NCBI RefSeq assembly: GCF_003334785.1 | Contig: NZ_QOWV01000002.1 | From: Escherichia coli | Lineage (GTDB): Bacteria > Pseudomonadota > Gammaproteobacteria > Enterobacterales > Enterobacteriaceae | Reading direction: 5' to 3' (one strand) | Length of the DNA: 64,000 nt | Shown here: positions 12,871 through 43,061 of the stretch, in pieces | How positions within the stretch are numbered: position 1 is the first letter of the stretch | Layout of the letters: every line of letters begins with the position of its first letter | Translations under genes and position numbers: made by a program | The notes under the pieces: model-generated | Databases searched by the model: none | Seen by the model: only the letters and a program-made list of their open reading frames with translations | What the model was told of the DNA's origin: nothing

Positions 12871-13992
12871 ATGTCAAAAGTTGCTCTCATCACCGGTGTA
12901 ACCGGACAAGACGGTTCTTACCTGGCAGAGTTTCTGCTGGAAAAAGGTTACGAGGTGCATGGTATTAAGCGTCGCGCATCGTCATTCAACACCGAGCGCG
13001 TGGATCACATTTATCAGGATCCGCACACCTGCAACCCGAAATTCCATCTGCATTATGGCGACCTGAGTGATACCTCTAACCTGACGCGCATTTTGCGTGA
13101 AGTACAGCCGGATGAAGTGTACAACCTGGGCGCAATGAGCCACGTTGCGGTCTCTTTTGAGTCACCAGAATATACCGCTGACGTCGACGCGATGGGTACG
13201 CTGCGCCTGCTGGAGGCGATCCGCTTCCTCGGTCTGGAAAAGAAAACTCGTTTCTATCAGGCTTCCACCTCTGAACTGTATGGTCTGGTGCAGGAAATTC
13301 CGCAGAAAGAAACCACGCCGTTCTACCCGCGATCTCCGTATGCGGTCGCCAAACTGTACGCCTACTGGATCACCGTTAACTACCGCGAATCCTACGGCAT
13401 GTACGCTTGTAACGGTATTCTCTTCAACCATGAATCCCCGCGCCGCGGCGAAACCTTCGTTACCCGCAAAATCACCCGCGCAATCGCCAACATCGCCCAG
13501 GGGCTGGAGTCGTGCCTGTACCTCGGCAATATGGATTCCCTGCGTGACTGGGGCCACGCCAAAGACTACGTAAAAATGCAGTGGATGATGCTGCAACAGG
13601 AACAGCCGGAAGATTTCGTTATCGCGACCGGCGTTCAGTACTCCGTACGTCAGTTCGTGGAAATGGCAGCGGCACAGCTGGGCATCAAACTGCGCTTTGA
13701 AGGCACGGGTGTTGAAGAGAAGGGCATTGTGGTTTCCGTCACCGGGCATGACGCGCCGGGCGTTAAACCGGGTGATGTGATTATCGCCGTTGATCCGCGT
13801 TACTTCCGTCCGGCAGAAGTTGAAACGCTGCTCGGCGACCCGACCAAAGCGCACGAAAAACTGGGCTGGAAACCGGAAATCACCCTCAGAGAGATGGTGT
13901 CTGAAATGGTGGCTAATGACCTCGAAGCGGCGAAAAAACACTCTCTGCTGAAATCTCACGGCTACGACGTGGCGATCGCGCTGGAGTCATAA
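12871..13992 (+). CDS. gmd: GDP-mannose 4,6-dehydratase
   Basis: 373 aa; N-terminal [12 protein letters not shown] Rossmann motif; recalled Gmd sequence. Confidence 0.95.
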
Positions 13993-13994
13993 GC

Positions 13995-14960
13995 ATGAGT
14001 AGACAACGCATTTTTATCGCTGGCCATCGCGGAATGGTCGGTTCCGCCATCACGCGGCAGCTCGAACAGCGCGGTGATGTGGAACTGGTATTACGCATCC
14101 GCGACGAGCTGAACCTGCTGGACAGCCGCGCGGTGCATGATTTCTTTGCCAGCGAACGTATTGACCAGGTCTATCTGGCGGCGGCGAAAGTGGGCGGCAT
14201 TGTTGCCAACAACACGTATCCGGCGGATTTCATCTACCAGAACATGATGATTGAGAGCAACATCATTCACGCCGCGCATCAGAACGACGTGAACAAACTG
14301 CTGTTTCTCGGATCGTCCTGTATCTACCCGAAACTGGCAAAACAGCCGATGGCAGAAAGCGAGTTGTTGCAGGGTACGCTGGAGCCGACCAACGAGCCTT
14401 ATGCCATTGCCAAAATCGCCGGGATCAAACTGTGCGAATCATACAACCGCCAGTATGGACGCGATTACCGCTCTGTCATGCCGACCAACCTGTACGGGCC
14501 GCATGACAACTTCCACCCGAGTAATTCGCATGTGATCCCTGCATTGCTGCGTCGCTTCCACGAGGCGACGGCACAGAATGCACCGGACGTGGTGGTATGG
14601 GGCAGCGGTACACCGATGCGTGAATTCCTGCACGTCGATGATATGGCGGCGGCGAGCATTCATGTCATGGAGCTGGCGCACGAAGTCTGGCTGGAGAACA
14701 CCCAGCCGATGCTGTCGCACATTAACGTCGGTACGGGCGTTGACTGCACTATCCGCGAGCTGGCGCAAACCATCGCCAAAGTGGTGGGTTACAAAGGTCG
14801 GGTGGTTTTTGATGCCAGCAAACCGGATGGTACGCCGCGCAAACTGCTTGATGTGACGCGCCTGCATCAGCTTGGCTGGTATCACGAAATCTCACTGGAA
14901 GCGGGGCTTGCCAGCACTTACCAGTGGTTCCTTGAGAATCAAGACCGCTTTCGGGGGTAA
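13995..14960 (+). CDS. fcl: GDP-L-fucose synthase
   Basis: 321 aa; NAD(P)-binding epimerase/reductase fold; directly after gmd. Confidence 0.95.
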
Positions 14961-18293: not shown

Positions 18294-19664
18294 ATGAAAA
18301 AATTAACCTGCTTTAAAGCCTATGATATTCGCGGGAAATTAGGCGAAGAACTGAATGAAGATATCGCCTGGCGCATTGGTCGCGCCTATGGCGAATTTCT
18401 CAAACCGAAAACCATTGTGTTAGGCGGTGATGTCCGTCTCACCAGCGAAACCTTAAAACTGGCGCTGGCAAAAGGTTTACAGGATGCGGGCGTTGACGTG
18501 TTGGATATTGGTATGTCCGGCACCGAAGAGATCTATTTCGCCACGTTCCATCTCGGCGTGGATGGCGGCATTGAAGTTACCGCCAGCCATAATCCGATGG
18601 ATTATAACGGCATGAAACTGGTGCGCGAAGGGGCTCGCCCAATCAGCGGTGATACCGGACTGCGCGACGTCCAGCGTCTGGCAGAAGCCAACGACTTTCC
18701 TCCCGTCGATGAAACCAAACGCGGTCGCTATCAGCAAATCAACCTGCGTGACGCTTACGTTGATCACCTGTTCGGTTATATCAATGTCAAAAACCTCACG
18801 CCGCTCAAGCTGGTGATCAACTCCGGGAACGGCGCAGCGGGTCCGGTGGTGGACGCTATCGAAGCCCGCTTTAAAGCCCTCGGCGCACCTGTGGAATTGA
18901 TCAAAGTGCACAACACGCCGGACGGCAATTTCCCCAACGGTATTCCTAACCCGCTGCTGCCGGAATGTCGCGACGACACCCGCAATGCGGTCATCAAACA
19001 CGGCGCGGATATGGGCATTGCCTTTGATGGCGATTTTGACCGCTGTTTTCTGTTTGACGAAAAAGGGCAGTTTATCGAGGGCTACTACATTGTCGGCCTG
19101 CTGGCAGAAGCGTTCCTCGAAAAAAATCCCGGCGCGAAGATCATCCACGATCCACGTCTCTCCTGGAACACCGTTGATGTGGTGACTGCCGCAGGTGGCA
19201 CGCCGGTAATGTCGAAAACCGGACACGCCTTTATTAAAGAACGTATGCGCAAGGAGGACGCCATCTACGGTGGCGAAATGAGCGCCCACCATTACTTCCG
19301 TGATTTCGCTTACTGCGACAGCGGCATGATCCCGTGGCTGCTGGTCGCCGAACTGGTGTGCCTGAAAGGAAAAACGCTGGGCGAACTGGTGCGCGACCGG
19401 ATGGCTGCGTTTCCGGCAAGCGGTGAGATCAACAGCAAACTGGCGCAACCCGTTGAGGCGATTAATCGCGTCGAACAGCATTTTAGCCGTGAGGCGCTGG
19501 CGGTGGATCGTACCGATGGCATCAGCATGACCTTTGCCGACTGGCGCTTTAACCTGCGCACCTCCAACACCGAACCGGTGGTGCGCCTGAATGTGGAATC
19601 GCGCGGTGATGTGCCGCTGATGGAAGCGCGAACGCGAACTCTGCTGACGTTGCTGAACGAGTAA
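18294..19664 (+). CDS. cpsG: Phosphomannomutase (colanic-acid copy)
   Basis: 456 aa from [14 protein letters not shown]; phosphohexomutase active-site region TASHNP. Confidence 0.95.
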
Positions 19665-25376: not shown

Positions 25377-26771
25377 ATGCCATTTAAAAAACTCTCCCGA
25401 CGCACCTTCCTGGCGGCAAGCTCGGCGCTTGCCTTCCTCCATACCCCTTTCGCTCGCGCACTTCCCGCCCGACAAAGCGTTAACATTAACGACTACAACC
25501 CACACGACTGGATCGCCTCATTTAAACAAGCCTTCAGCGAAGGGCAAACGGTCGTCGTGCCTGCCGGATTGGTTTGTGACAATATCAACACCGGCATCTT
25601 CATTCCTGCAGGTAAAACGTTACACATCTTGGGAAGCCTGCGCGGCAACGGCAGAGGGCGATTTATCTTACAGGACGGCAGCCAGGTGACAGGGGAGGAG
25701 GGCGGCAGTATGCATAACATCACCCTGGATGTGCGTGGCTCTGACTGCACCATCAAAGGGCTGGCGATGAGCGGCTTTGGCCCGGTAACGCAGATTTATA
25801 TCGGCGGCAAAAACAAACGGGTCATGCGCAACCTGACCATCGATAATCTCACCGTTAACCACGCTAATTACGCTATTTTGCGCCAGGGATTTCATAACCA
25901 GATAATCGGTGCCAACATCACCAATTGTAAGTTCAGTGACTTACAAGGCGACGCCATTGAATGGAACGTGGCAATTAACGACAGTGATATTTTGATATCT
26001 GACCATGTCATCGAGCGCATCAACTGTACTAACGGCAAAATCAACTGGGGCATTGGCATAGGTCTTGCGGGAAGTACCTACGATAACAACTACCCGGAAG
26101 ACCAGGCAGTGAAAAACTTTGTCGTGGCGAATATCACGGGATCGGATTGTCGGCAGTTGATCCATGTTGAAAATGGCAAACATTTTGTTATTAGTAATAT
26201 CAAAGCCCGCAATATCACGCCGGATTTCAGTAAGAAAGCGGGCATTGATAACGCCACGGTCGCTATTTACGGTTGTGACAATTTCGTGATTGATAATATT
26301 GAAATGATTAATAGCGCCGGGATGTTAATCGGCTATGGGGTAATTAAAGGCAAATATCTCTCGATACCGCAAAATTTCCGAGTGAATAATATTCAACTGG
26401 ATAATACCCACCTTGCTTATAAATTGCGCGGTATCCAAATCTCCGCCGGGAATGCCGTCTCCTTTGTGTCGCTAACTAATATTGAGATGAAGCGTGCCTC
26501 GCTGGAGTTACACAACAAGCCGCAACATCTTTTTATGCGTAATATCAATGTGATGCAGGAATCCTCTGTTGGACCCGCATTGATCATGAACTTCGACATG
26601 CGCAAAGACGTTCGAGGCGTCTTTATGGCGAAAGAAGAAACACTGCTGTCTCTTGCAAATGTTCATGCGGTGAATGAAAGAGGGCAAAGCTCCGTCGATA
26701 TCGACAGGATTAATCACCATATTGTTAATGTGGAAAAGATTAACTTTAGATTGCCGGAACGGAGGGAGTAG
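25377..26771 (+). CDS. wcaM: Colanic-acid biosynthesis protein WcaM (secreted, beta-helix-like)
   Basis: 464 aa; N-terminal signal-like segment; last gene of the cluster. Confidence 0.85.
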
Positions 26772-26945: not shown

Positions 26946-27839
26946 ATGACGAATTTAAAAGCAGTTATTCCTGTAGCGGGTCTTGGGATGCATATGTTGC
27001 CTGCCACTAAGGCGATTCCCAAAGAGATGCTACCGATCGTCGACAAGCCAATGATTCAGTACATTGTTGACGAGATTGTGGCTGCAGGGATCAAAGAAAT
27101 CCTCCTGGTAACTCATGCGTCCAAGAACGCGGTCGAAAACCACTTCGACACCTCTTATGAATTAGAATCTCTTCTTGAACTGCGCGTGAAGCGTCAACTA
27201 CTGGCGGAAGTTCAGTCCATCTGCCCGCCGGGCGTGACCATTATGAACGTACGTCAGGGCGAACCTTTAGGTTTAGGTCACTCCATTTTGTGTGCACGAC
27301 CCGCCATTGGTGACAACCCATTTGTCGTGGTGCTGCCAGACGTTGTGATCGACGACGCCAGTGCCGACCCGCTGCGCTACAACCTTGCAGCCATGATTGC
27401 GCGCTTCAACGAAACGGGCCGCAGCCAGGTGCTGGCAAAACGTATGCCGGGTGACCTCTCTGAATACTCCGTCATTCAGACCAAAGAACCACTGGATCGT
27501 GAAGGTAAAGTCAGCCGCATTGTTGAATTTATCGAAAAACCGGATCAGCCGCAGACGCTGGATTCAGACATCATGGCCGTTGGTCGCTATGTGCTTTCTG
27601 CAGATATTTGGCCGGAACTTGAACGCACTCAGCCTGGTGCATGGGGGCGTATTCAGCTGACTGATGCCATCGCTGAACTGGCGAAAAAACAGTCTGTTGA
27701 TGCCATGCTGATGACAGGTGACAGCTACGACTGCGGTAAAAAAATGGGTTATATGCAGGCATTTGTGAAGTATGGACTACGCAACCTGAAAGAAGGGGCG
27801 AAGTTCCGTAAAGGTATTGAGAAGCTGTTAAGCGAATAA
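26946..27839 (+). CDS. galF: UTP-glucose-1-phosphate uridylyltransferase paralog GalF
   Basis: Start at [14 protein letters not shown]; flanks the O-antigen cluster. Confidence 0.9.
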
Positions 27840-28097: not shown

Positions 28098-28136
28098 CAG
28101 TGCTCTGGTAGCTGTAAAGCCAGGGGCGGTAGCGTG
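28098..28136 (+). promoter_or_regulatory. JUMPStart element with ops motif GGCGGTAGCGTG (28125..28136) upstream of the O-antigen operon
   Basis: cagtgctctggtagctgtaaagccaggggcggtagcgtg read directly; near-repeat of 3596..3638. Confidence 0.85.
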
Positions 28137-28195
28137 CTGAAATTATAAAGTCATTCTTATAGAACATCGCATTTCAATAATATAATTACACCTAA

Positions 28196-29452
28196 ATGAA
28201 TAGGATACAACGTGTGCATAATTATTTAAGGCTTAAAGATAAAATAAAAAACGTATTTTTAGGGTTATATATATTGCAGTTATTTAATTATATCGCGCCA
28301 TTGGTAATTATCCCTATCCTGATAAAATATATTGGGTTGGGGGAATATGGGGAATTAGTCTATATTACATCTATTTATCAAATAGTGGCTTTGTTTATTG
28401 ATTTTGGCTTTACTTACACAGGACCTGTGGTTGCTGCGAGACATAAATGTGAGATCCAAAATTTACAGCGCTATTACTCAATAGTTGTTCTTTTAAAATC
28501 ATTGCTTTTTATAATTGCATTAACATGTGTATTTTTATTGTGCAGATTAAATATAGTCCACTTGTCATTTTTGGGGTTTTTGTCAATTTTTCTATGCTCT
28601 ATTGGTAATATAGTATCGCCCAATTGGTTTTTGCAGGGGATTGGTGATTTTAAAAAACTTTCATACTCTCAAGTAATAGTGAGAATAACATTGTTTATCA
28701 TGCTTCTTGTTTATGTCTGTAGTGGCGGAGATAATGTTTTTATCTTAAGTTTTTTACAAAATGCAACATTACTCATATGCTGTATATACTTATGGCCAAA
28801 TATTCATATTAGCCATGTTGTTCATCTTAAACCTAATGAATGCATTGTGGAATTTAAGAAGGCAGGAAATGTTTTTATTGGCGTAATAGGTACGATTGGT
28901 TACAATGGTCTAATTCCTGTGTTAATTGGAAACCTTTGCGGTAATACGAGTCTTGGTGTTTTTTCAATCGTTCAAAAAATGACAACAGCATGTCAAAGCC
29001 TAATTAATCCAATATCACAGTATATGTTATCACAAGTTTCAGAAATTAAACCTCAAGATGAACTGTTTTATTATAGAATTAAAAAAAGTTTTTTTGTGCA
29101 TTTAACAATTAGCATAATTGCATGTTTATGTTATATGGGGTTAGGGCAATATGTGGCGACTTTTATAGGTAAAGTTGACGTTTCATTTGTTATTATTTTA
29201 TATGCGTCAGTAATTACAATTTTTTCATCTTTAAATAATGTCCTTGGTATACAGTTTCTTATACCGACAGATAATGTAAAAATACTGCGAAGTATAAATG
29301 TTATAGCGGGAATTATTGTTGTTAGTTTGTCCTGGCTGTTAATATCACGCTTTGACATTCTGGGGGGGGTTTTATTAAATCTAATTGGTGAGTTTCTTGT
29401 ATTCAGTATGCTAGCTTTTATTGCCCATCGTAAGTGGGGAGCGAGAGTATAA
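28196..29452 (+). CDS. wzx: O-antigen flippase Wzx (MOP superfamily)
   Basis: 418 aa, about 12 predicted membrane spans, AT-rich; first gene after JUMPStart. Confidence 0.75.
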   Translation: MNRIQRVHNYLRLKDKIKNVFLGLYILQLFNYIAPLVIIPILIKYIGLGEYGELVYITSIYQIVALFIDFGFTYTGPVVAARHKCEIQNLQRYYSIVVLLKSLLFIIALTCVFLLCRLNIVHLSFLGFLSIFLCSIGNIVSPNWFLQGIGDFKKLSYSQVIVRITLFIMLLVYVCSGGDNVFILSFLQNATLLICCIYLWPNIHISHVVHLKPNECIVEFKKAGNVFIGVIGTIGYNGLIPVLIGNLCGNTSLGVFSIVQKMTTACQSLINPISQYMLSQVSEIKPQDELFYYRIKKSFFVHLTISIIACLCYMGLGQYVATFIGKVDVSFVIILYASVITIFSSLNNVLGIQFLIPTDNVKILRSINVIAGIIVVSLSWLLISRFDILGGVLLNLIGEFLVFSMLAFIAHRKWGARV

Positions 29453-30795
29453 TGAAAGTGAAGGCGGTTCCTGCTATTACATTCTATTTAAGTTTAATGC
29501 TGACAATTTTAGTGTTACTGTTTGGTAATGAACCAAATAAATCACAATATATTCTTGTTATAGCAACGATAACAGTTTTTTATATCGCGTATATCACTAA
29601 TAAAATAACTTCTCCGGCCAGCCTTCTCGTTATATCATCTTTTGTGTTTTTAGGTTGTCGACCTTTATTATCTTTGTTTGCAAACTATGATTACAGGATT
29701 GCCGATTGGTTTATTGAAGGATATATGGATGACGATGTGATTATGGCTAACTATGCTATAACATTAATGTATTATGGTTATACATTGGGACTAATTCTAT
29801 GCAGAAATACTGAAAAAATTTATCCGCATGGATCATATCCAGAGAAACAATTGCTAAAAATAAAGTTTCTTTTGACTTTATTTTTTCTGGGTTCGATAGG
29901 TATGGTTGTGAAAGGGATATTCTTTTTTAACTTTATAGAATCTAATAGTTATGTTGATATATATCAATCAAATATAACAACGCCAATAGGTTATGATTTT
30001 CTGTCTTATTTGTTTTATTGTTCTTTTTTCCTTATATGTGCGTTTCATATACAGTTCAGAACAAATAAAAAATTTCTTTTTATTGCGATATGCATTGCTG
30101 CATTTAGCACCTTGAAGGGTAGTCGTAGTGAAGCTATAACGTTTCTTTTAACGGTTACATGTATATATTTTAATGAAGTAAAGACAAGAAACTTACGTTT
30201 GCTGATTACAATGATTTTTGTTTTTAGCGTCATTTTTGTGATTAGTGAATTTATCTCAATGTGGCGCACTGGAGGGAGTTTTATTCAATTAATGCAGGGT
30301 AATAATCCTGTTATAAACTTTGTATACGGCATGGGAGTATCATATCTTTCCATTTATCAATCAGTAAAACTACAACTATTGTCAGGGGGGTATAATGTTA
30401 CCTATCTATTCAGCCAGTTAATAATAACTTGCTCGTCAATATTTAATGTTAAATTGAGCTTGCCGGAAATAAGCTATAGCCATTTGGCCTCATACACAGC
30501 AAACCCAGAACTATATAATCTTGGGTTCGGACTTGGGGGAAGTTATTTAGCAGAATCGTTTTTAGCATTTGGTCTTATTGGGTGTTTCATAATACCCTTT
30601 TTACTTTTACTTAATTTAAATGTATTGGAAAAATACACAAAAAACAAACCAATCATATATTTTGTTTATTATAGTGTGTTGCCACCTATATTATTCACAC
30701 CAAGAGAGACTTTGTTCTATTTCTTCCCCTATCTTGTCAAAAGTATATTTGTTGCTTTTTTAGTTACATTATACATCCAGTATAAAAAGGATTGA
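29452..30795 (+). CDS. wzy: O-antigen polymerase Wzy (putative)
   Basis: Highly hydrophobic polytopic protein; ATG at 29452 overlaps the wzx stop (TAATG); the ORF track offers an upstream start at 29434. Confidence 0.65.
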   Translation: MKVKAVPAITFYLSLMLTILVLLFGNEPNKSQYILVIATITVFYIAYITNKITSPASLLVISSFVFLGCRPLLSLFANYDYRIADWFIEGYMDDDVIMANYAITLMYYGYTLGLILCRNTEKIYPHGSYPEKQLLKIKFLLTLFFLGSIGMVVKGIFFFNFIESNSYVDIYQSNITTPIGYDFLSYLFYCSFFLICAFHIQFRTNKKFLFIAICIAAFSTLKGSRSEAITFLLTVTCIYFNEVKTRNLRLLITMIFVFSVIFVISEFISMWRTGGSFIQLMQGNNPVINFVYGMGVSYLSIYQSVKLQLLSGGYNVTYLFSQLIITCSSIFNVKLSLPEISYSHLASYTANPELYNLGFGLGGSYLAESFLAFGLIGCFIIPFLLLLNLNVLEKYTKNKPIIYFVYYSVLPPILFTPRETLFYFFPYLVKSIFVAFLVTLYIQYKKD

Positions 30796-30800
30796 CGAAA

Positions 30801-31661
30801 ATGTCAGAAAAAAATGTCAGCATAATAATCCCAAGTTATAACAGGGCTCATATTCTTAAGGAGGTCATACCAAGTTATTTTCAGGATGAGACTTTAGAGG
30901 TAATAGTTATCAATGATGGATCAACAGATAATACAAATAGTGTATTAGCTGAACTGAAGGAAAAATATTCTCAATTAGTTATTTTAGAAAATGATACGAA
31001 CAAAAAACAGATGTATTCTAAAAACCGAGGGATTGAAATAGCCAAAGGGAAATATATTTTTTTTGGTGATGATGACTCTTACCTCTTACCCGGTGTTATA
31101 TCTCGGTTATTGGCTACAAAATATGAGACAGGCGCTGATGTAATCGGCGCAAGAATACTCTATATGAATAATAACGAGAAAACAATTGAAGATTGCATAA
31201 ATCGACATAAAACAGAGGGGCGTTTTGTTAGTGATTTAAATAGATTGGATTTTAGTTATACATGTGATTTGGACCATCCGATTGAATGTTTTTATGCACA
31301 GTCTATTATTCTAGCTGAAAGGGAACTAATATCGAAATATCGATTTGATATATCTTATACGGGAAACTGCTATCGTGAGGAAACTGATTTCATGTTATCT
31401 CTTTTTATAAAAAATAAAAAATTTATATATGATTCAAAGGCTCTGTTAATAAATTTACCTCCACGAAAAGCGACGGGAGGGGCAAGAACAGCTAATCGAT
31501 TAAAATATCATTATGAAAGTTGCATAAATAATTATAGATTTTTAAAAAAATATAATGATAATTTGAATCTTCTTTCAGGACAAAAGCATGCTATATTTTA
31601 CCGACAGTGTCAATTCGTTCTGCTAAAAATTAAGTCGTTTATCGGGAAGTTTTTAAAATGA
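30801..31661 (+). CDS. Glycosyltransferase family 2 (O-unit synthesis)
   Basis: N-terminal SIIIPSYNRA...INDGSTDNT and downstream DDD motif typical of GT2; ATG 30801 preceded by aagga. Confidence 0.75.
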   Translation: MSEKNVSIIIPSYNRAHILKEVIPSYFQDETLEVIVINDGSTDNTNSVLAELKEKYSQLVILENDTNKKQMYSKNRGIEIAKGKYIFFGDDDSYLLPGVISRLLATKYETGADVIGARILYMNNNEKTIEDCINRHKTEGRFVSDLNRLDFSYTCDLDHPIECFYAQSIILAERELISKYRFDISYTGNCYREETDFMLSLFIKNKKFIYDSKALLINLPPRKATGGARTANRLKYHYESCINNYRFLKKYNDNLNLLSGQKHAIFYRQCQFVLLKIKSFIGKFLK

Positions 31662-32689
31662 TTGTATATATTGCCGCGTATAATGGTTCAGGAGGGCAAG
31701 GTGGGGTGGAAAGGGTTGTTGCCCAACAATGTAACATTCTTAAAAATTTGGGGGTTAAAGTCATTATACTTGATAAAGCATACTTCAAAATTTCTAACAA
31801 AATTCGTAACAAAAAAATACAAGTAGCACTTTATCCAATATTAGTTTCTCTTTATTTAACCTTACAAAAATTACGTGGCGTGACGTTTAAAGTTATTGCG
31901 CATGGCTATTGTTCTCCTTTTTATAGGAATGACATCTTAATAGCTCATGGCAATATGAAATGTTATTTTCAAACAGTCATGAAAAAAAAACCTAATCGAT
32001 TGTCCGGCAGTGGTCTTTTATCTTTCTATGAGCGTTTGGCTGGATCATTCTCAAAAAATATCTGGGCTGTTTCAAATAAGGTTAAAAGTGAATGGAATGA
32101 GCTTTACAATATTAATTCACATAAAATTAAAGTTGTTCGAAATTTTATAAATCTTGAACAATTTGATTGCACTGATGTTAATGAAGCACAATATGTGACA
32201 TTTGTCGGGCGATTGGAAAAAGGAAAAGGAATAGATGATCTGTATTACATATGTAAAAATCTGCCAGATACTTCCTTCCATTTAGTTTCAAGTATTCCCG
32301 CCCCACAAAATTTTGCTTCGCTAAATAATGTTCTGACCAGCATTGCTGTCCCCTATGCGAAAATGCCAGAAATATTTAAGAAATCCAGAGTACTTATTTT
32401 ACCGTCCTATTATGAAGGATATGAGCTGGTTACTATTGAAGCGCTATGCTGTGGTTGCCCTGTGATAGGCTATAACGTTGGTGCAATTAGAGAGTTGTAT
32501 GCTGAAAGTTTTCCTGGCGTGTTTATTGCCAATAATAAAGAAGATTTAGCACAAGTAGCCTACGAACTAATTAGTCTTGATAATGAAAAATATTATCATT
32601 TGAGACAAACTATTTATAGCAAGCGTGAGCTTTTTTCTGAAGAGAGATATGCGGAAATTTTAACGGCGGCATTTAATGAAAAAAAATAA
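31658..32689 (+). CDS. Glycosyltransferase, GT4/group-1 type
   Basis: 343 aa; C-terminal LPSYYEGYELVTIEA E-x7-E motif. Confidence 0.75.
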   Translation: MIVYIAAYNGSGGQGGVERVVAQQCNILKNLGVKVIILDKAYFKISNKIRNKKIQVALYPILVSLYLTLQKLRGVTFKVIAHGYCSPFYRNDILIAHGNMKCYFQTVMKKKPNRLSGSGLLSFYERLAGSFSKNIWAVSNKVKSEWNELYNINSHKIKVVRNFINLEQFDCTDVNEAQYVTFVGRLEKGKGIDDLYYICKNLPDTSFHLVSSIPAPQNFASLNNVLTSIAVPYAKMPEIFKKSRVLILPSYYEGYELVTIEALCCGCPVIGYNVGAIRELYAESFPGVFIANNKEDLAQVAYELISLDNEKYYHLRQTIYSKRELFSEERYAEILTAAFNEKK

Positions 32690-33821
32690 GAAACTATGTC
32701 TCATTTCAATTAACTCATATAATGAACTTACCGGAGGAGGAGTATATTTACGTACGCTTGTTAGTTTTCTACAAAAACAGAATGTTAATTTAACACTTAT
32801 TGATAAAAAATCTTCAGGTAAACTATTCGAAGACAATACTTTTCAACATATATCATTTATTAAAGGTAAACGTCAGGATATTATATCCAGGCTTTTTTTT
32901 ATACCATCATTTTATGTCCCTTATATTTTCTCAATAATTAAAATTTTACGGAAGCAAGATATTCTAGCTTTTCACAACTCTCGACTTGGATTGTTATGTC
33001 TGCTTTTTAGAATACTCATGCCCCATAAAAAGATCATATTGTTTACGGATAACTTCGAATATGACTTAATAAGACAAAAAGATAAAAACATAACTACTTT
33101 TGTTGAAAAAATAATTGTTTATCTCAATGAATTTATCGGGCTTAAGAATTCACATTTAGTTAGCTATATTACCCGGCAAGATAAAAATGCAATGGATAAA
33201 TTTTATGGGGTTAAAAAAAGCAGAAATTTAATTCTCCCTGTGATATTTAGTAGAGAAAAGCCAACTGATGTATTATCAGCTCACTTTATTAATGAGTATA
33301 ATCGATTGAATAATGATAATAGGAAAAAAGTAGTATTTACTGCATCTTTTGATTTTTTTCCAAATATAGATGCTGCCAACTATGTTTTAAATGCAGCAAA
33401 GTCGAATAATGATTATTGCTATATTTTGGCAGGTAGGAAAAGTACTACTTTGAATCTTCCTGATTTGGATAATTTATTTTTTTTCGATAATCTATCTAAT
33501 AGTGAAATGTCATATTTATTATCTGCTTGTGATATTTTTTATTCTCCTATAGTTTTAGGAAGTGGAATGAAAACAAAAATTGCAGAAGCGCTATCATATG
33601 GATTATATATTTATGCGACAGAGCATTCCTTAATCGGCTATGATGAAATTATAAACAACAAGGAGTGTGTTAAAAAAATCTCACATTTGGATGAGGAATT
33701 TCCTAAAGATTTCAAGGTGAAAAGTATCAATAAACAGCTAATAATGTCTTATCAGCAAAAATATTATTCACATTATCGGTTTAATGGCCATGAACTTGAC
33801 ATGATAAATATTGACGATTAG
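32676..33821 (+). CDS. Glycosyltransferase (probable GT4-like)
   Basis: 381 aa; general GT-B-like layout; weaker motif support than neighbours. Confidence 0.6.
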   Translation: MKKNKKLCLISINSYNELTGGGVYLRTLVSFLQKQNVNLTLIDKKSSGKLFEDNTFQHISFIKGKRQDIISRLFFIPSFYVPYIFSIIKILRKQDILAFHNSRLGLLCLLFRILMPHKKIILFTDNFEYDLIRQKDKNITTFVEKIIVYLNEFIGLKNSHLVSYITRQDKNAMDKFYGVKKSRNLILPVIFSREKPTDVLSAHFINEYNRLNNDNRKKVVFTASFDFFPNIDAANYVLNAAKSNNDYCYILAGRKSTTLNLPDLDNLFFFDNLSNSEMSYLLSACDIFYSPIVLGSGMKTKIAEALSYGLYIYATEHSLIGYDEIINNKECVKKISHLDEEFPKDFKVKSINKQLIMSYQQKYYSHYRFNGHELDMINIDD

Positions 33822-33837
33822 TTAGTGGAGATATAAT

Positions 33838-34845
33838 ATGAACATATTAGTAACTGGTGGTGCTGGATATATCGGATCTCATACGGCTATTGAATTACTA
33901 AATGCAGGTCATGAGATTATCGTTCTGGACAATTTCAGTAATGCTTCATACAAGTGTATCGAAAAAATAAAAGAAATTACTCGACGTGATTTTATAACAA
34001 TTACAGGAGATGCTGGGTGTAGGAAGACACTCTCCGCTATTTTCGAGAAACACGCCATAGATATAGTTATTCATTTTGCTGGCTTTAAATCTGTTTCAGA
34101 GTCTAAAAGTGAACCCTTAAAGTATTACCAAAATAATGTTGGAGTGACCATTACTTTATTACAGGTAATGGAAGAGTACAAAATTAAAAAATTTATCTTT
34201 AGTTCATCTGCGACAGTCTATGGTGAACCAGAGATAATTCCAATTTCAGAAACAGCTAAAATTGGAGGAACTACGAATCCATATGGCACATCGAAATATT
34301 TTGTTGAAAAAATTCTAGAGGATGTTAGTTCCACGGGAAAACTGGATATAATTTGCTTGAGATATTTTAATCCTGTCGGTGCTCATTCTAGTGGTAAAAT
34401 AGGTGAAGCTCCATCTGGTATCCCTAATAATCTTGTCCCTTATTTATTGGATGTTGCAAGTGGTAAACGTGATAAATTATTTATTTATGGCAATGATTAT
34501 CCTACTAATGATGGAACAGGTGTAAGAGATTTTATTCATGTTGTTGACTTAGCGAAAGGTCATTTGGCTGCAATGAATTATTTAAGTATCAATTCGGGAT
34601 ATAATATCTTTAATCTTGGTACAGGAAAAGGTTATTCAGTGCTTGAATTAATCACTACATTTGAAAAATTAACAAACATTAAGGTCAATAAATCTTTTAT
34701 AGAGAGAAGGGCAGGGGATGTTGCGTCTTGTTGGGCTGATGCAGATAAAGCTAATTCTTTATTGGACTGGAAAGCCGAACAAACTCTAGAACAGATGTTA
34801 TTGGACTCGTGGCGTTGGAAAAAAAATTATCCAGACGGATTCTGA
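33838..34845 (+). CDS. gne: UDP-hexose / UDP-N-acetylhexosamine 4-epimerase (GalE/Gne family)
   Basis: 335 aa; N-terminal TGGAGYIGSH Rossmann motif and YGTSK catalytic motif of short-chain epimerases. Confidence 0.8.
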   Translation: MNILVTGGAGYIGSHTAIELLNAGHEIIVLDNFSNASYKCIEKIKEITRRDFITITGDAGCRKTLSAIFEKHAIDIVIHFAGFKSVSESKSEPLKYYQNNVGVTITLLQVMEEYKIKKFIFSSSATVYGEPEIIPISETAKIGGTTNPYGTSKYFVEKILEDVSSTGKLDIICLRYFNPVGAHSSGKIGEAPSGIPNNLVPYLLDVASGKRDKLFIYGNDYPTNDGTGVRDFIHVVDLAKGHLAAMNYLSINSGYNIFNLGTGKGYSVLELITTFEKLTNIKVNKSFIERRAGDVASCWADADKANSLLDWKAEQTLEQMLLDSWRWKKNYPDGF

Positions 34846-34865
34846 ATAAAAAAGGTTTCAGTTTT

Positions 34866-36071
34866 ATGAATCAATCAGAGCAGAGAAAAAAAATACTGGT
34901 TCTTACACCTCGCTTTCCCTACCCTGTCATTGGAGGGGATAGATTAAGAGTCTATATGTTATGTAAAGAACTTTCCAAAAAATATGATCTTATTCTTCTG
35001 AGCTTATGTGATCAACCACTAGAACTTGAAATAAATATAAATGACTCGGTCTTCAAAGAAATTCATCGTGTCTATCTACCAAAATATAAATCATATTATA
35101 ATGTATTTAAAGCTTTGGTTACGCAAAAACCGTTGCAAATTGCTTATTATCAATCGGACACATTTAAGAATAAATACAATAAATTAATTAAACAATGCGA
35201 TGCAGTATTTTGTCATCTAATAAGAGTTGCTGATTATGTTAAGGATACAGACAAGTTCAAAATTCTTGATATGACAGATGCAATATCTTTGAATTACAGT
35301 CGCGTTAAAAAATTAGCAAGTAAAAAAAGTTTGCGTGCAATTATTTATTCTCTGGAACAAAAAAGATTAGAATCATATGAGCGTTCTGTGGCGAATCTTT
35401 TTGATTTGACCACTTTTATTTCATCCGTAGACCGTGACTATCTCTACCCTAATCCGGGCAGTAATATCCATATAGTCAATAATGGGGTTGATACATCAGC
35501 CTTGAGATATATAAAAAGAGAAATAAAAATCGATAAGCCGGTGGAACTTATATTTATCGGAAATATGTATTCTTTACAAAATATGGATGCTGCAAAAAAT
35601 TTTGCTAAGAATATTTTACCTTGCTTGCATGATGAGTTTAATATTATTTTTAAAGTGATTGGTAAGATCTCAGAAACTAATAAAAATATATTAAATTCAT
35701 TTAAAAATACAATTGCTTTAGGTACTGTTGATGATATCAATTCTTCCGCTTCTACAGGGCATATAGGTATATGTCCTGTTCGTCTTGGAGCAGGCGTACA
35801 AAATAAAATTCTTGAATACATGGCTTTAGGTTTACCATGTATTACATCTAGCATTGGTTATGAAGGTATTAATGCAAAATCTGGTAGCGAAATTTTTGTT
35901 GCAGATACAGTAGAGCAATATAAAAACGTACTAAGAGAAATAATTTACGATTATAATCGTTATACTGAAGTGGCTGAAAATGCCCGTAGTTTTGTAGAAA
36001 ATAATTTTTCTTGGGAATCAAAAGTTGCCAATTTAATGAATATATTAGATGAGAAATTATATGAACAATAA
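34866..36071 (+). CDS. Glycosyltransferase, GT4/group-1 type
   Basis: Start at [20 protein letters not shown] (internal Met of ORF 34809..36071); GT4 layout. Confidence 0.7.
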
Positions 36072-37500
36072 TAAAATTATTACACCTATCATTATGGCAG
36101 GTGGTTCAGGCAGTCGGTTGTGGCCACTATCAAGAATTCTCTATCCGAAACAATTTCTTAGCCTAAACGGTAGTCATACCATGCTTCAAACAACGGCTAA
36201 TCGTCTGGATGGTTTGGATTGTACCAACCCTTATGTCATTTGTAATGAACAACACCGCTTTATAGTTGCTGAACAGCTTAGAAAAATCGATAGATTGACT
36301 TCAAAGAATATCATCCTTGAGCCTGTTGGGCGTAACACTGCCCCTGCAATTGCATTAGCGGCGTTGCTGATGTCTAAGTCTGATAAAAGTGCAGATGATC
36401 TTATGCTCGTACTGGCTGCAGATCACGTTATATTAGATGAAGAAAAATTTTGTAACGCTGTTAGATCGGCAATTCCATACGCTGCTGATGGGAAATTGGT
36501 AACATTTGGTATAATTCCAGACAAAGCAGAAACTGGTTATGGTTATATACATCGAGGACAATATATTAATCAGGAAGATTCGGATGCATTTATAGTGTCA
36601 TCATTTGTTGAAAAGCCAAATCATGAGACAGCCACTAAATATCTTGCTTCCGGTGAGTATTATTGGAATAGCGGTATGTTTTTGTTTAGTGCAAATCGTT
36701 ATATAGAGGAACTTAAACAATTTCGGCCTGATATTTTATCCGCTTGTGAAAAAGCAATTGCTTCAGCGAACTTTGACCTTGATTTTGTGCGTTTAGATGA
36801 AAGTTCTTTCTCTAAGTGTCCTGAAGAGTCAATTGATTACGCTGTAATGGAAAAAACAAAAGACGCAATTGTTATTCCAATGGATGCTGGCTGGAGTGAT
36901 GTCGGTTCATGGTCTTCTCTTTGGGAAATTAATGATAAAGACTCAGACGGCAACGTAATAGTTGGGGATATTTTCTCTCATGAAACAAAGAATTCTTTCA
37001 TATATGCCGAATCGGGAATTGTTGCTACAGTGGGAGTGGAAAATTTAGTTGTTGTCCAAACAAAGGATGCCGTTCTTGTCTCAGAGAGAAATAAAGTTCA
37101 GGATGTAAAGAAAATAGTCGAACAAATTAAAAATTCAGGTCGTAGCGAGCATTATGTTCATCGCGAAGTATATCGTCCTTGGGGTAAATATGATTCCATT
37201 GACACAGGGGAGCGTTATCAGGTCAAACGTATAACAGTAAATCCTGGTGAAGGACTTTCTTTACAAATGCACCATCATAGGGCAGAACATTGGATCATAG
37301 TTTCTGGAACTGCAAAGGTGACTATAGGTTCTGAAACTAAGATTCTTAGCGAAAATGAATCTGTTTACATACCTCTTGGTGTAATACACTGCTTGGAAAA
37401 TCCAGGGAAAATTCCTCTTGATTTAATTGAAGTTCGTTCTGGATCTTATTTAGAAGAAGACGATGTTATCCGTTTTCAGGACCGATATGGTCGCAGCTAA
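36061..37500 (+). CDS. manC: Mannose-1-phosphate guanylyltransferase (O-antigen copy)
   Basis: Protein close to CpsB ([14 protein letters not shown]), but DNA is AT-rich and diverged from cpsB. Confidence 0.9.
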
Positions 37501-37582
37501 ATTTTTGATAATGTAACGTTAGTAGAAGAACGCTAATATTTTTAGTTAATCTGTAATAAGTATTATTTGTTTAAGGTATATC

Positions 37583-38953
37583 ATGTCGAGTTTAACCTGC
37601 TTTAAAGCCTATGATATTCGCGGGAAATTAGGCGAAGAACTGAATGAAGATATCGCCTGGCGTATTGGGCGTGCCTATGGCGAATTTCTCAAACCGAAAA
37701 CCATTGTGTTAGGCGGTGACGTCCGCCTCACCAGCGAAACCTTAAAACTGGCGCTGGCGAGAGGTTTACAGGATGCGGGCGTCGATGTGCTGGATATCGG
37801 CATGTCCGGCACCGAAGAGATCTATTTCGCCACGTTCCATCTCGGCGTGGATGGCGGCATCGAAGTTACCGCCAGCCATAATCCGATGGATTATAACGGC
37901 ATGAAGCTGGTTCGCGAGGGGGCTCGCCCGATCAGCGGAGATACCGGACTGCGCGACGTCCAGCGTCTGGCTGAAGCCAACGACTTTCCTCCCGTCGATG
38001 AAACCAAACGCGGTCGCTATCAGCAAATCAACCTGCGTGACGCTTACGTTGATCACCTGTTCGGTTATATCAATGTCAAAAACCTCACGCCGCTCAAGCT
38101 GGTGATCAACTCCGGGAACGGCGCAGCGGGTCCGGTGGTGGACGCTATCGAAGCCCGCTTTAAAGCCCTCGGCGCACCTGTGGAATTGATCAAAGTGCAC
38201 AACACGCCGGACGGCAATTTCCCCAACGGTATTCCTAACCCGCTGCTGCCGGAATGTCGCGACGACACCCGCAATGCGGTCATCAAACACGGCGCGGATA
38301 TGGGCATTGCCTTTGATGGCGATTTTGACCGCTGTTTTCTGTTTGACGAAAAAGGGCAGTTTATCGAGGGCTACTACATTGTCGGCCTGCTGGCAGAAGC
38401 GTTCCTCGAAAAAAATCCCGGCGCGAAGATCATCCACGATCCACGTCTCTCCTGGAACACCGTTGATGTGGTGACTGCCGCAGGTGGCACGCCGGTAATG
38501 TCGAAAACCGGACACGCCTTTATTAAAGAACGTATGCGCAAGGAGGACGCCATCTACGGTGGCGAAATGAGCGCCCACCATTACTTCCGTGATTTCGCTT
38601 ACTGCGACAGCGGCATGATCCCGTGGCTGCTGGTCGCCGAACTGGTGTGCCTGAAAGAGAAAACGCTGGGCGAACTGGTACGCGACCGGATGGCGGCGTT
38701 TCCGGCAAGCGGTGAGATCAACAGCAAACTGGCGCAACCCGTTGAGGCGATTAACCGCGTGGAACAGCATTTTAGCCGTGAGGCGCTGGCGGTGGATCGC
38801 ACCGATGGCATCAGCATGACCTTTGCCGACTGGCGCTTTAACCTGCGCTCCTCCAACACCGAACCGGTGGTGCGCCTGAATGTGGAATCGCGCGGTGATG
38901 TGCCGCTGATGGAAGAAAAGACAAAACTTATCCTTGCGTTATTGAACAAGTAA
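37583..38953 (+). CDS. manB: Phosphomannomutase (O-antigen copy)
   Basis: 456 aa; DNA nearly identical to cpsG across most of its length. Confidence 0.95.
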
Positions 38954-39116
38954 TTCAGTATTTTCATATAAATAAGTTTTAAAAGACGGAAAAGATGAGA
39001 TATTCAGTGTGGTATAGCAAAGGTACTGCTATTCACCATCTCTATGAGTGAGTTAACATCTATACCACATTTAAGCCGCACACTCGGCGGTGAACACCCC
39101 CTGACAGGAGTAAACA

Positions 39117-40523
39117 ATGTCAAAGCAACAGATTGGCGTCGTCGGTATGGCAGTGATGGGGCGCAACCTTGCGCTCAACATCGAAAGCCGTGGTTATACC
39201 GTCTCTATTTTCAACCGTTCCCGTGAGAAGACGGAAGAAGTGATTGCCGAAAATCCAGGCAAGAAATTGGTTCCTTACTTTACGGTAAAAGAGTTTGTTG
39301 AATCTCTGGAAACGCCTCGTCGCATCCTGTTAATGGTGAAAGCAGGTGCAGGCACGGATGCTGCTATTGATTCCCTCAAGCCATACCTCGATAAAGGTGA
39401 CATCATCATTGATGGTGGTAACACCTTCTTCCAGGATACTATTCGTCGTAACCGTGAGCTTTCTGCAGAAGGTTTTAACTTCATTGGTACCGGTGTTTCC
39501 GGCGGTGAAGAAGGCGCGTTGAAAGGGCCGTCCATCATGCCAGGTGGGCAGAAAGAAGCCTATGAACTTGTTGCGCCGATCCTGACCAAAATCGCCGCAG
39601 TGGCTGAAGACGGTGAGCCATGCGTTACCTATATCGGTGCCGATGGCGCAGGCCATTATGTGAAGATGGTACACAACGGTATTGAATACGGCGATATGCA
39701 GCTGATTGCTGAAGCCTATTCGTTGCTTAAAGGCGGCCTTAATCTCTCTAACGAAGAACTGGCGCAGACGTTTACCGAGTGGAATAACGGTGAACTGAGC
39801 AGCTACCTGATCGACATCACCAAAGATATCTTCACCAAAAAAGATGAAGACGGTAACTACCTGGTTGATGTGATTCTGGATGAAGCAGCAAACAAAGGTA
39901 CCGGTAAATGGACCAGCCAGAGCGCGCTGGATCTCGGCGAACCGCTGTCGCTGATTACCGAGTCTGTGTTTGCACGTTATATCTCGTCTCTGAAAGATCA
40001 GCGCGTTGCCGCGTCTAAAGTTCTCTCTGGCCCGCAAGCACAGCCAGCAGGCGACAAGGCTGAGTTCATCGAAAAAGTTCGCCGTGCGCTGTATCTTGGC
40101 AAAATCGTTTCTTACGCTCAGGGCTTCTCTCAGCTGCGTGCTGCGTCTGAAGAATACAACTGGGCTCTGAACTACGGCGAAATCGCGAAGATTTTCCGTG
40201 CTGGCTGCATCATCCGTGCGCAGTTCCTGCAGAAAATCACCGATGCTTATGCCGAAAATCCGCAGATCGCTAACCTGCTGCTGGCTCCGTACTTCAAGCA
40301 AATTGCCGATGACTACCAGCAGGCGCTGCGTGATGTCGTCGCATATGCAGTACAGAACGGTATCCCGGTTCCGACCTTCGCCGCTGCGGTTGCCTATTAC
40401 GATAGCTACCGTGCCGCTGTTCTGCCTGCGAACCTGATCCAGGCACAGCGTGACTATTTCGGTGCGCATACTTATAAGCGCATTGATAAAGAAGGTGTGT
40501 TCCATACTGAATGGCTGGATTAA
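39117..40523 (+). CDS. gnd: 6-phosphogluconate dehydrogenase, decarboxylating
   Basis: 468 aa; N-terminal [20 protein letters not shown]-binding motif. Confidence 0.95.
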
Positions 40524-40762: not shown

Positions 40763-41938
<1,176 letters not shown>

Positions 41939-42080: not shown

Positions 42081-43061
42081 ATGATGAGAGTAGAAAATAA
42101 TAATGTTTCTGGGCAAAATCATGACCCGGAACAGATTGATTTGATTGATTTACTAGTGCAGTTGTGGCGTGGCAAGATGACAATCATCATTTCCGTCATT
42201 GTGGCTATTGCCCTGGCTATTGGTTATTTGGCAGTCGCGAAGGAGAAATGGACGTCAACAGCAATTATCACTCAGCCCGACGTGGGGCAAATTGCTGGCT
42301 ATAACAATGCCATGAATGTTATCTATGGTCAGGCTGCACCGAAAGTATCGGATTTACAGGAGACGTTAATTGGTCGCTTCAGTTCTGCTTTCTCTGCATT
42401 AGCAGAAACGCTGGATAATCAGGAAGAACCAGAAAAACTTACCATCGAACCTTCTGTTAAGAACCAGCAATTACCATTGACTGTTTCTTATGTTGGGCAA
42501 ACTGCAGAGGGAGCACAAATGAAGTTGGCCCATTACATTCAGCAAGTTGATGATAAAGTGAATCAAGAGCTAGAAAAGGATCTCAAAGACAACATTGCTC
42601 TGGGACGGAAAAACTTGCAGGACTCTTTAAGAACCCAGGAAGTGGTTGCGCAGGAGCAGAAAGATCTGCGTATCCGTCAGATTCAGGAAGCGTTGCAGTA
42701 TGCGAATCAGGCGCAGGTGACAAAGCCACAGGTTCAGCAGACTGAAGATGTGACACAAGATACGTTGTTCCTTTTGGGGAGCGAAGCGCTGGAGTCGATG
42801 ATTAAGCATGAGGCGACCCGTCCGTTGGTGTTCTCGCCAAACTACTATCAGACACGTCAAAACCTGTTGGATATTGAAAACTTAAAGGTTGATGATCTTG
42901 ATATTCATGCTTACCGCTATGTGATGAAACCGACGTTACCTATTCGTCGCGATAGTCCGAAAAAGGCAATCACCTTGATTCTGGCAGTGCTTCTGGGCGG
43001 CATGGTTGGCGCGGGGATTGTGTTGGGGCGTAATGCTCTGCGTAATTACAACGCGAAGTAA
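42081..43061 (+). CDS. wzzB: O-antigen chain-length determinant WzzB
   Basis: Start at MMRVENNN; two membrane spans flanking a coiled-coil-rich periplasmic region; C-terminal GGMVGAGIVL. Confidence 0.9.
   Translation: MMRVENNNVSGQNHDPEQIDLIDLLVQLWRGKMTIIISVIVAIALAIGYLAVAKEKWTSTAIITQPDVGQIAGYNNAMNVIYGQAAPKVSDLQETLIGRFSSAFSALAETLDNQEEPEKLTIEPSVKNQQLPLTVSYVGQTAEGAQMKLAHYIQQVDDKVNQELEKDLKDNIALGRKNLQDSLRTQEVVAQEQKDLRIRQIQEALQYANQAQVTKPQVQQTEDVTQDTLFLLGSEALESMIKHEATRPLVFSPNYYQTRQNLLDIENLKVDDLDIHAYRYVMKPTLPIRRDSPKKAITLILAVLLGGMVGAGIVLGRNALRNYNAK

Follow-up and report, generated by a model that had tools for sequence, protein, structure and literature searches.

The window, a 64,000-nucleotide stretch of Escherichia coli DNA, carries at 28098-38953 a polysaccharide gene cluster bounded upstream by galF (26946..27839, forward strand; TIGR01105, 685 bits) and downstream by gnd (39117-40523, forward strand; NCBIfam equivalog above cutoff, 770 bits). 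All ten open reading frames are co-oriented, full length and tightly packed or overlapping. The JUMPstart/ops leader is followed, in this order, by wzx, wzy, the genes of three glycosyltransferases (a GT2-family enzyme, GT4a and GT_381), gne, the gene of a fourth glycosyltransferase (GT4b), manC and manB. Beyond gnd lie ugd (40772-41938, forward strand; NCBIfam equivalog above cutoff, 892 bits) and wzzB, encoding the chain-length regulator (42084-43061, forward strand; NF012015, 609 bits, above cutoff). The colanic-acid cluster upstream is complete, has a wza-wzb-wzc set of its own and holds gmd and fcl (12871-14960), while neither these nor rml genes occur inside the block. No gnu gene is present between wcaM, which ends at 26771, and galF, a gap of 174 bp, and no Wzm/Wzt ABC transporter genes are found, all ten frames falling in other families. 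The first-pass annotation had proposed the galF-gnd location, a gene content of wzx, wzy, four glycosyltransferases, a GalE-family epimerase, manC and manB, and the lack of rml and gmd/fcl in the block, and the profile matches agree with it on these points.

The 39-bp element at 28098-28136 (forward strand; cagtgctctggtagctgtaaagccaggggcggtagcgtg, read directly), whose first base is exactly the start given to the locus by the first-pass annotation, includes the ops motif GGCGGTAG at 28126-28133 on the same strand. By its consensus we take it to be JUMPstart/ops. JUMPstart/ops is an RfaH-dependent antitermination signal in operon leaders. Transcription would thus begin upstream of the element, and RfaH would carry it across the 10.8-kb AT-rich operon. 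A scan for promoter-like and terminator-like sequences remained at chance level, with 49 promoter-like hits against 47 expected and 3 terminator-like hits against 6 expected.

Measured in steps of 1 kb, the GC content between 28.0 and 36.5 kb is 29-34%, compared to 53-56% in the upstream cps genes and about 50-55% in the downstream gnd/his region. By gene, it amounts to 28-34% from wzx through the last glycosyltransferase gene (GC3 21-28%) and 38% in manC, with 51% in both galF and gnd and 55-56% in cpsB and cpsG. The AT-rich block described earlier is therefore confirmed from wzx to manC (28-38% GC), but it does not extend as far as gnd, as manB has a GC content of 55.4%. By composition the cluster is a mosaic, in which the AT-rich, imported segment reaches no further than manC, and manB represents a resident gene of the cpsG type.

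The two genes at this border differ accordingly in their relation to the colanic-acid cluster. The mannose-1-phosphate guanylyltransferase gene manC (36061..37500, forward strand, 479 aa; NF012004, 865 bits, cutoff 859) is a low-GC, cluster-specific copy with only 66% nucleotide and 72% amino acid identity to cpsB of the window. The phosphomannomutase gene manB (37583..38953, forward strand, 456 aa; NF011943, 1050 bits), with a GC3 of 65%, is of the colanic-acid cpsG type; it shares 96.4% nucleotide identity with cpsG of the window (18294-19664), including a perfectly identical tract of 685 bp at 37973-38657. The haplotype common with E. coli W breaks off inside manB, at about 38338. From this position 20 differences to W are found in the 3' part of the gene, and gnd is 95.9% identical, so that a recombination junction is placed within manB. 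Judged from these tracts, manB is a recombination mosaic that has exchanged sequence with the colanic-acid cpsG copy. In the O14 type strain the O-antigen cluster has been removed by deletion (PMC7685785), and the 685-bp identical direct repeat of cpsG and manB could serve as the substrate for a similar event.

Both membrane proteins belong to the Wzx and Wzy families, as the first-pass annotation required for its reading. Wzx, the predicted O-unit flippase (28196..29452, forward strand, 418 aa), contains ten hydrophobic 19-mers; its family was resolved by Pfam (PF01943 Polysacc_synt, E=2.7e-19), with no HMM match in NCBIfam. The gene is 99.9% identical to that of W and 98.1% identical to those of CFT073, Nissle and ETEC, with 11 amino acid differences to CFT073, and copies with 99.9-100% identity are named 'O6 family O-antigen flippase' in RefSeq. 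The start of wzy overlaps the stop of wzx by 1 nt. Its product, the predicted O-antigen polymerase (29452..30795, forward strand, 447 aa), matches Pfam PF14296 O-ag_pol_Wzy (E=7e-31) and TIGR04370 (54.9 bits, cutoff 40) and appears in RefSeq as 'O6 family O-antigen polymerase'. Here the identity is 99.9% to W and 98.0% to CFT073, Nissle and ETEC. The reading frame is intact: codon 329 encodes Ser in the window and is a stop in Nissle 1917 (RefSeq 'internal stop'). Residue 128, which lies outside the predicted hydrophobic segments, is a Ser private to the sublineage of the window and VE-F10, and a Pro in W, CFT073, Nissle and ETEC6.

Over its full length the locus is 98.3-100% identical at the DNA level to the O6-annotated loci of CFT073, 536, Nissle 1917, ATCC 25922 and E. 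coli W. Query coverage is 100% in one piece in all five, so gene content and order are kept. E. coli W has been published as O6 (PMC3032704), and one matching record is titled 'O6:K2:H1'. Among 5426 complete E. coli genomes, 154 contain the locus; the 7.9-kb specific region matches only those 154, and the RefSeq matches listed for them name wzx and wzy 'O6 family'. Two discrete alleles can be distinguished. The W type, to which the window belongs, is present in 22 genomes at an identity of at least 99%, the CFT073 type in 132 genomes at about 98.3%, and nothing lies between. Compared to the window, the allele of CFT073, 536, Nissle, ATCC 25922 and ETEC has diverged by 1.7%, evenly spread. A swapped glycosyltransferase gene as the source of the difference between the types was rejected on the basis of this even spread and the complete coverage. 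Several independent isolates of human, pig and wastewater origin carry exactly the allele of the window, with 100% identity and with Ser128 of Wzy included. Taken together, the sequence comparisons leave very little doubt that the region is an intact, operon-organised, Wzx/Wzy-dependent O-antigen cluster of serogroup O6 in its E. coli W allele. The tentative 'O6-like' assignment of the first-pass annotation is thus borne out, and the repeat unit of the matched serogroup contains mannose, as that assignment demanded. The cluster is already known, catalogued, annotated in RefSeq and routinely typed, and the finding is ordinary.

The epimerase gene gne, annotated as galE (33838..34845, forward strand), encodes a protein of 335 aa that is predicted to be a UDP-GlcNAc/UDP-Glc 4-epimerase (TIGR01179 galE, 431 bits; E=1e-108 to E. 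coli GalE PDB chains). Its Cys298 aligns with the gatekeeper Tyr299 of E. coli GalE, within 'VASCWADA' in the window as opposed to 'LPAYWADA' in wild-type GalE and 'LPACWADA' in the chain 1lrk, which we take to be the gain-of-function mutant Y299C. With a small residue at the position of Tyr299, the pocket gains room for the N-acetyl group. A role as Gne, the source of UDP-GalNAc, fits this substitution, and a review lists gne in the O6 cluster (PMC7685785).

The repeat unit of O6 is a branched pentasaccharide of two beta-Man, a beta-Glc branch, an alpha-GalNAc and the initiating HexNAc (PMC8244359). It holds one GlcNAc and one GalNAc, of which GlcNAc is considered the first because gne is present in the cluster (PMC7685785). 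This composition leaves four glycosyltransferase-made linkages for four glycosyltransferase genes, and no deoxy-sugar genes are found in the cluster. The four enzymes together with WecA, ManC/ManB and Gne with its Cys gatekeeper fit the published structure, which agrees with the five-sugar unit of mannose and N-acetylhexosamine anticipated earlier.

The specificities of the glycosyltransferases, left unassigned in the first-pass annotation, can in part be deduced from other clusters; this holds for GT4b, while for the GT2-family gene, GT4a and GT_381 distant blastn searches brought up no homologue beyond the O6 genomes, and hence no comparative assignment is available for these three. GT4b, a GT-B enzyme of 401 aa (34866..36071, forward strand; TIGR03087-like, 204 bits, below cutoff; PF13692, E=3.5e-14), has a full-length homologue with 53% amino acid identity (E=2e-155) in the O17/O44/O73/O77/O106 cluster, where the gene of that glycosyltransferase directly precedes manC. 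As beta-Man-(1->3)-GlcNAc is the only linkage common to the O-units of this O77 group and O6 (PMC7685785), GT4b is probably the first mannosyltransferase, which would add beta-1,3-Man onto GlcNAc-PP-undecaprenol. The RefSeq label of GT4b, 'family 4', denotes a retaining family, whereas adding beta-Man from a GDP-alpha-Man donor, as proposed, requires inversion, so that one of the two, label or assigned role, is imprecise.

The GT2-family enzyme (30801..31661, forward strand, 286 aa; RefSeq 'glycosyltransferase family 2 protein') has NCBIfam matches of the GT2 type, all below their equivalog cutoffs, including the beta-1,3-glucosyltransferase PglI with 64 bits. For GT4a (31658..32689, forward strand, 343 aa) the GT4-type NCBIfam matches below cutoff include the alpha-GalNAc transferases PglJ and PglH, and its translation contains a canonical E-X7-E motif, EGYELVTIE. 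GT_381 (32676..33821, forward strand, 381 aa) is a divergent GT-B enzyme with weak Pfam matches (PF13692, E=1.7e-6; PF13439, E=7.6e-4), no NCBIfam family and, at 28.2%, the lowest GC content in the cluster. From retaining/inverting logic and elimination we infer that the GT2-family enzyme is an inverting beta-1,2-glucosyltransferase for the side-branch Glc and GT4a a retaining alpha-1,3-GalNAc transferase, which by elimination would leave GT_381 as the beta-1,4-mannosyltransferase linking Man to Man. A PDB sequence search gave no usable relatives for GT_381 or GT4b, and BLASTP, run to see whether the two are paralogues, gave no significant match between them (E=0.4-5). Both share G-x-G-x3-K-I-x-E in place of E-X7-E, a weak hint only.

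In the assembly we propose, WecA, encoded outside the window, would make GlcNAc-PP-undecaprenol, with GDP-Man supplied by ManB and ManC and UDP-GalNAc by Gne. GT4b would attach the beta-1,3-Man to GlcNAc, followed by the beta-1,4-Man from GT_381 and the alpha-1,3-GalNAc from GT4a, and the GT2-family enzyme would add the beta-1,2-Glc side branch. Wzx would then flip the pentasaccharide and Wzy polymerise it via an alpha-GlcNAc-(1->4)-GalNAc bond, to a modal length governed by WzzB. Ligation of the O6 polymer to the core would fall to WaaL, whose gene lies elsewhere in the genome.

Two O6 structures that differ in the side branch, Glc or GlcNAc, were reportedly compared by Jann et al. 1994. The W-type allele might accordingly make the form with the beta-GlcNAc side branch through a donor switch of the GT2-family enzyme, which we consider unlikely. 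This enzyme differs from that of CFT073 by six changes (D65E, T138K, S168P, I169F, I170V and I277M), three of them at the consecutive positions 168-170, and the sharp separation of the two alleles would suit such a switch. However, the divergence of about 2% runs over all genes and is mostly synonymous, as expected for simple lineage divergence and not for selection on one enzyme, and a gene at another place in the genome could just as well account for the side-branch difference. Literature searches on the genetic basis of the Glc and GlcNAc forms gave no results, and no paper was found that connects these forms with the W-type and CFT073-type alleles. That the two allele types as such correspond to the beta-Glc and beta-GlcNAc forms, via substitutions like S168P/I169F/I170V, is rather improbable; if true, 'O6' calls by genotype would combine two polysaccharides of distinct antigenicity, a point of relevance for ExPEC vaccines containing O6A.

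It is quite improbable, too, that the cluster is present while the strain has rough or semi-rough LPS, owing to a missense change like P128S in Wzy or to a defect outside the window (wecA, waaL, rfaH). Such an effect of one nucleotide change in wzy is described for the semi-rough Nissle 1917, according to PMC6895014 citing Grozdanov 2002, and Ser128 is private to the present sublineage. Yet the frames are all complete, residue 128 avoids the hydrophobic segments, and the recurrence of the Ser128 allele in independent isolates argues against a crippling lesion. A locus that makes a capsule, of group 1 or a group 4 'O-antigen capsule', instead of LPS O-antigen is barely credible. Group 4 capsules do use the same galF-gnd cluster and repeat unit, and an extra capsular export of O6 is compatible with the sequence, but a complete upstream colanic-acid cluster with wza-wzb-wzc is the pattern of strains that lack a group 1 capsule at this site, and wzzB is present downstream. 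In addition, O6 counts among the established LPS serogroups (PMC7685785), and a waaL mutant of CFT073 loses the O6 antigen (bioRxiv 10.1101/2024.06.07.597965).

O6 is clinically important through CFT073, 536 and ETEC O6, and is met in the probiotic Nissle 1917 and as a component of ExPEC bioconjugate vaccines. By genotype the strain of the window is O6, and it shares its allele with W, an industrial and laboratory strain, as opposed to the uropathogenic strains of ST73 type. Beyond correct annotation the significance is small; the mosaic structure, the assignment of GT4b by comparison and the 685-bp repeat of cpsG and manB are modest useful points.

The O6 (wb*O6 / rfb) cluster found in Nissle 1917, 536 and CFT073 (Grozdanov et al. 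2002, J Bacteriol 184:5912, as cited in PMC6895014) has the same ten genes, order, JUMPstart and flanks as the window, with 98.3% identity over 10.86 kb. This structurally studied allele, of the CFT073/Nissle type, has diverged by about 2% across the genes wzx to gne and by about 0.7% across GT4b and manC, so that each protein has 3-11 amino acid changes. For manB and gnd the recombinant segments differ, with identities of 96.6% and 95.5%, and Nissle wzy is interrupted at codon 329 where that of the window is intact. E. coli W (ATCC 9637) is identical to the window from galF through manC except for 5 single-nucleotide differences (99.9%), and its proteins differ by L99F in Wzx and S128P in Wzy. 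The O16 rfb cluster of K-12 resembles that of the window in its galF-gnd locus, the Wzx/Wzy pathway and a low GC content. It differs in rmlBDAC, glf and an IS5-disrupted wbbL (O16 IS5::wbbL, Table 1 of PMC3032704), all of which are absent from the window cluster, and the designation as a non-K-12 type was correct. With the O77 group (O17/O44/O73/O77/O106), finally, the window has a glycosyltransferase-manC module in common (the glycosyltransferases 53% and manC 60% identical), and at the reducing end both O-units carry beta-Man-(1->3)-GlcNAc (PMC7685785). The O77-group cluster has a different wzx and wzy, only two glycosyltransferases and no gne; its manB is of low GC and of a different class, with 24% amino acid identity to that of O6, and its backbone is alpha-1,2-mannose, while that of O6 is Man-GalNAc.

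Between galF (26946-27839) and gnd (39117-40523) ten ORFs are tightly packed in the same orientation. A 39-bp JUMPstart element (cagtgctctggtagctgtaaagccaggggcggtagcgtg) begins exactly at 28098, the start coordinate in the first-pass annotation, and contains the ops motif GGCGGTAG at 28126-28133. Profile matches were obtained for each of the predicted genes. Wzx (28196-29452), with ten hydrophobic segments, matched PF01943 (E=2.7e-19), and Wzy (29452-30795) matched PF14296 (E=7e-31) and exceeded the cutoff of TIGR04370. Among the four glycosyltransferases, GT2 (30801-31661) gave NCBIfam matches of GT2 type, GT4a (31658-32689) gave matches of GT4 type and has a canonical E-X7-E motif, and GT4b (34866-36071) matched PF13692 and a TIGR03087-like profile (204 bits). 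For GT_381 (32676-33821), a divergent GT-B protein of 381 residues, the only matches were weak ones to PF13692 and PF13439; the NCBIfam profile search returned no family and the PDB sequence search no relative. The epimerase gene gne (33838-34845), annotated galE, matched TIGR01179 (GalE family, 431 bits), manC (36061-37500) NF012004 (865 bits) and manB (37583-38953) NF011943 (1050 bits). As claimed, the O-antigen block holds no rml, gmd or fcl; the gmd and fcl of the window belong to the colanic-acid cluster.

That cluster (wca/cps, about 3817-26771) is complete, including gmd, fcl, cpsB, cpsG, wcaJ, wzxC and wcaM, and together with the his operon on the minus strand downstream it forms the standard E. 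coli backbone context. Just 174 bp separate wcaM from galF, with no gnu gene in between, and gnd is followed by ugd and then wzzB.

In 1-kb windows, the GC content is 29-34% from 28.0 to about 36.5 kb, compared with 53-56% in the colanic-acid genes upstream and about 50-55% in gnd and his downstream. Per gene it is 28-34% from wzx through GT4b (GC3 21-28%) and 38% in manC, while manB has 55.4% (GC3 65%). Hence, the AT-rich block exists and its composition lies far outside chance expectation. It was drawn too wide, however: the description holds from wzx to manC (28-38% GC), ending at about 37500, and not up to gnd.

To identify the serotype, the whole region was used as a megablast query against 5426 complete E. 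coli genomes. Full-length, single-piece matches were found in 154, annotated 'O6 family O-antigen flippase/polymerase' in every row among the matches listed, and the serotype-specific 7.9 kb (wzx through GT4b) matched the same 154 genomes and no others. As the matched loci are annotated as O6 family and E. coli W, whose cluster is intact, has been published as O6 (PMC3032704), the tentative O6-like assignment is correct. The locus, intact and ordinary, is the O6 O-antigen cluster known from earlier work, in the allele shared with E. coli W (W-type). Two classes of match can be distinguished: 22 genomes with at least 99% identity, among them E. coli W, the W derivatives KO11FL and LY180, and several isolates from human, pig and wastewater at 100%, and 132 with about 98.3%, among them CFT073, 536, Nissle 1917, ATCC 25922, ETEC isolates and a record titled O6:K2:H1. 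Two 4.83-Mb records labelled 'DH5alpha' (NZ_CP026085.1 and NZ_CM135829.1) also carry the W-type cluster at 99.8% identity. Since a K-12 derivative is expected to have the O16 rfb cluster, it is probable that the label is wrong and that both strains derive from E. coli W.

In a five-way alignment, the window and the CFT073-type allele (the 98.3% class) diverge by about 2% across the genes wzx to gne and by about 0.7% across GT4b and manC, with 3-11 amino-acid changes per protein. A gene swap between the two alleles was rejected, as the differences are evenly spread; the pattern is one of lineage divergence. It appears very improbable that the Glc and GlcNAc forms of O6 stem from these two alleles. 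Wzy is full length in the window, while in Nissle 1917 it has a stop at codon 329; this is the lesion named as the cause of the semi-rough phenotype of that strain in a passage of PMC6895014 citing Grozdanov 2002. Codon 128 of wzy (29833-29835) encodes Ser in the window and the 100%-identical genomes, and Pro in E. coli W, CFT073, Nissle 1917 and ETEC6; the P128S change is private to the former group. In one Nissle assembly (EcN_Sk, NZ_CP172017.1), both wzx and wzy of the O6 cluster have frameshifts, and glycosyltransferase and galE ORFs are fused or truncated; these defects are most likely sequencing errors, as they are absent from another Nissle assembly.

The epimerase was proposed to be of GalE/Gne type, and its Cys298 aligns with the gatekeeper Tyr299 of E. 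coli GalE. The surrounding motif reads VASCWADA in the window, LPAYWADA in wild-type PDB chains and LPACWADA in the 1lrk chain, which we take to be the GalE Y299C mutant with gained UDP-GlcNAc activity. Its match to the 1lrk residue makes the predicted role as Gne well supported. Gne would supply UDP-GalNAc, and ManB and ManC GDP-Man. The O6 repeat has been published as ->4)-a-GalNAc-(1->3)[b-Glc-(1->2)]-b-Man-(1->4)-b-Man-(1->3)-a-HexNAc-(1-> (PMC8244359). According to PMC7685785, its two HexNAc residues are one each of GalNAc and GlcNAc, the latter being the initiating sugar since the cluster has gne. The text of PMC8244359, unlike PMC7685785, writes both HexNAc residues as GalNAc, probably a typographical slip. 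The five-sugar unit with mannose and N-acetylhexosamine predicted from the gene content agrees with this structure; overall, the earlier observation is confirmed and its interpretation supported.

With GlcNAc initiating the pentasaccharide, four linkages remain for the four glycosyltransferase genes, one alpha (GalNAc to Man) and three beta. GT4b has homologues in 114 non-O6 genomes (about 63-64% nucleotide identity). The one in the O17/O44/O73/O77/O106 cluster (O77-group) is 53% identical over the full protein length (E=2e-155) and likewise lies directly 5' of manC. The O77-group backbone, ->6)-a-Man-(1->2)-a-Man-(1->2)-b-Man-(1->3)-a-GlcNAc-(1->, is built by two glycosyltransferases, one of which adds both alpha-Man residues (PMC7685785). 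As b-Man-(1->3)-GlcNAc is the only linkage common to O6 and the O77-group, GT4b is quite likely the first, beta-1,3-mannosyltransferase. By mechanism and elimination, the inverting GT2 might add the beta-Glc branch, GT4a, given its canonical motif, the alpha-GalNAc, and GT_381 the beta-1,4-Man; each of these three assignments is tentative and falls somewhat short of probable. Homologues of GT2, GT4a and GT_381 were not detectable in other E. coli clusters, and the similarity between GT_381 and GT4b is not significant. A galF-gnd cluster in strain GDSC2227PM (NZ_CP135595.1; 3354-13013 of the extracted locus) encodes a flippase, an EpsG-family polymerase and four glycosyltransferases, one 53% identical to GT4b, and has low-GC manC/manB. 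Its wzx and wzy carry no O-group name in RefSeq, so it may represent an unnamed O-genotype.

Comparison with the colanic-acid counterparts gave 96.4% identity between manB and cpsG but only 66% between manC and cpsB. The two former genes, in direct orientation and 19.3 kb apart, share a perfectly identical 685-bp tract (manB 37973-38657, cpsG 18684-19368). Apart from cpsG/manB sites, the closest complete genome, VE-F10, shows only two differences from the window over 9098-42118. Relative to it, 15 informative sites in a row in the window cpsG (18818-19256) show the base typical of manB, and position 38338 in manB shows that of cpsG. The cause is either gene conversion in the very recent past or a collapse of the two paralogues during assembly. 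The haplotype common to both genomes extends into wzzB as far as about 42119, the point at which an indel puts the alignment out of register. E. coli W is essentially identical to the window from galF to manC, but 20 differences follow within manB, the first of them at 38338, which places a recombination junction inside manB at about that position; gnd is only 95.9% identical. Junctions of this kind flank the cluster, in 38338-40523 and from about 42119 onward. In the O14 type strain, the O-antigen cluster was deleted through recombination between the two manB copies (PMC7685785). The O6 cluster uses a manB of the resident type, being close to cpsG and far from the manB of the O77-group, which is low in GC and shares only 24% protein identity with it.
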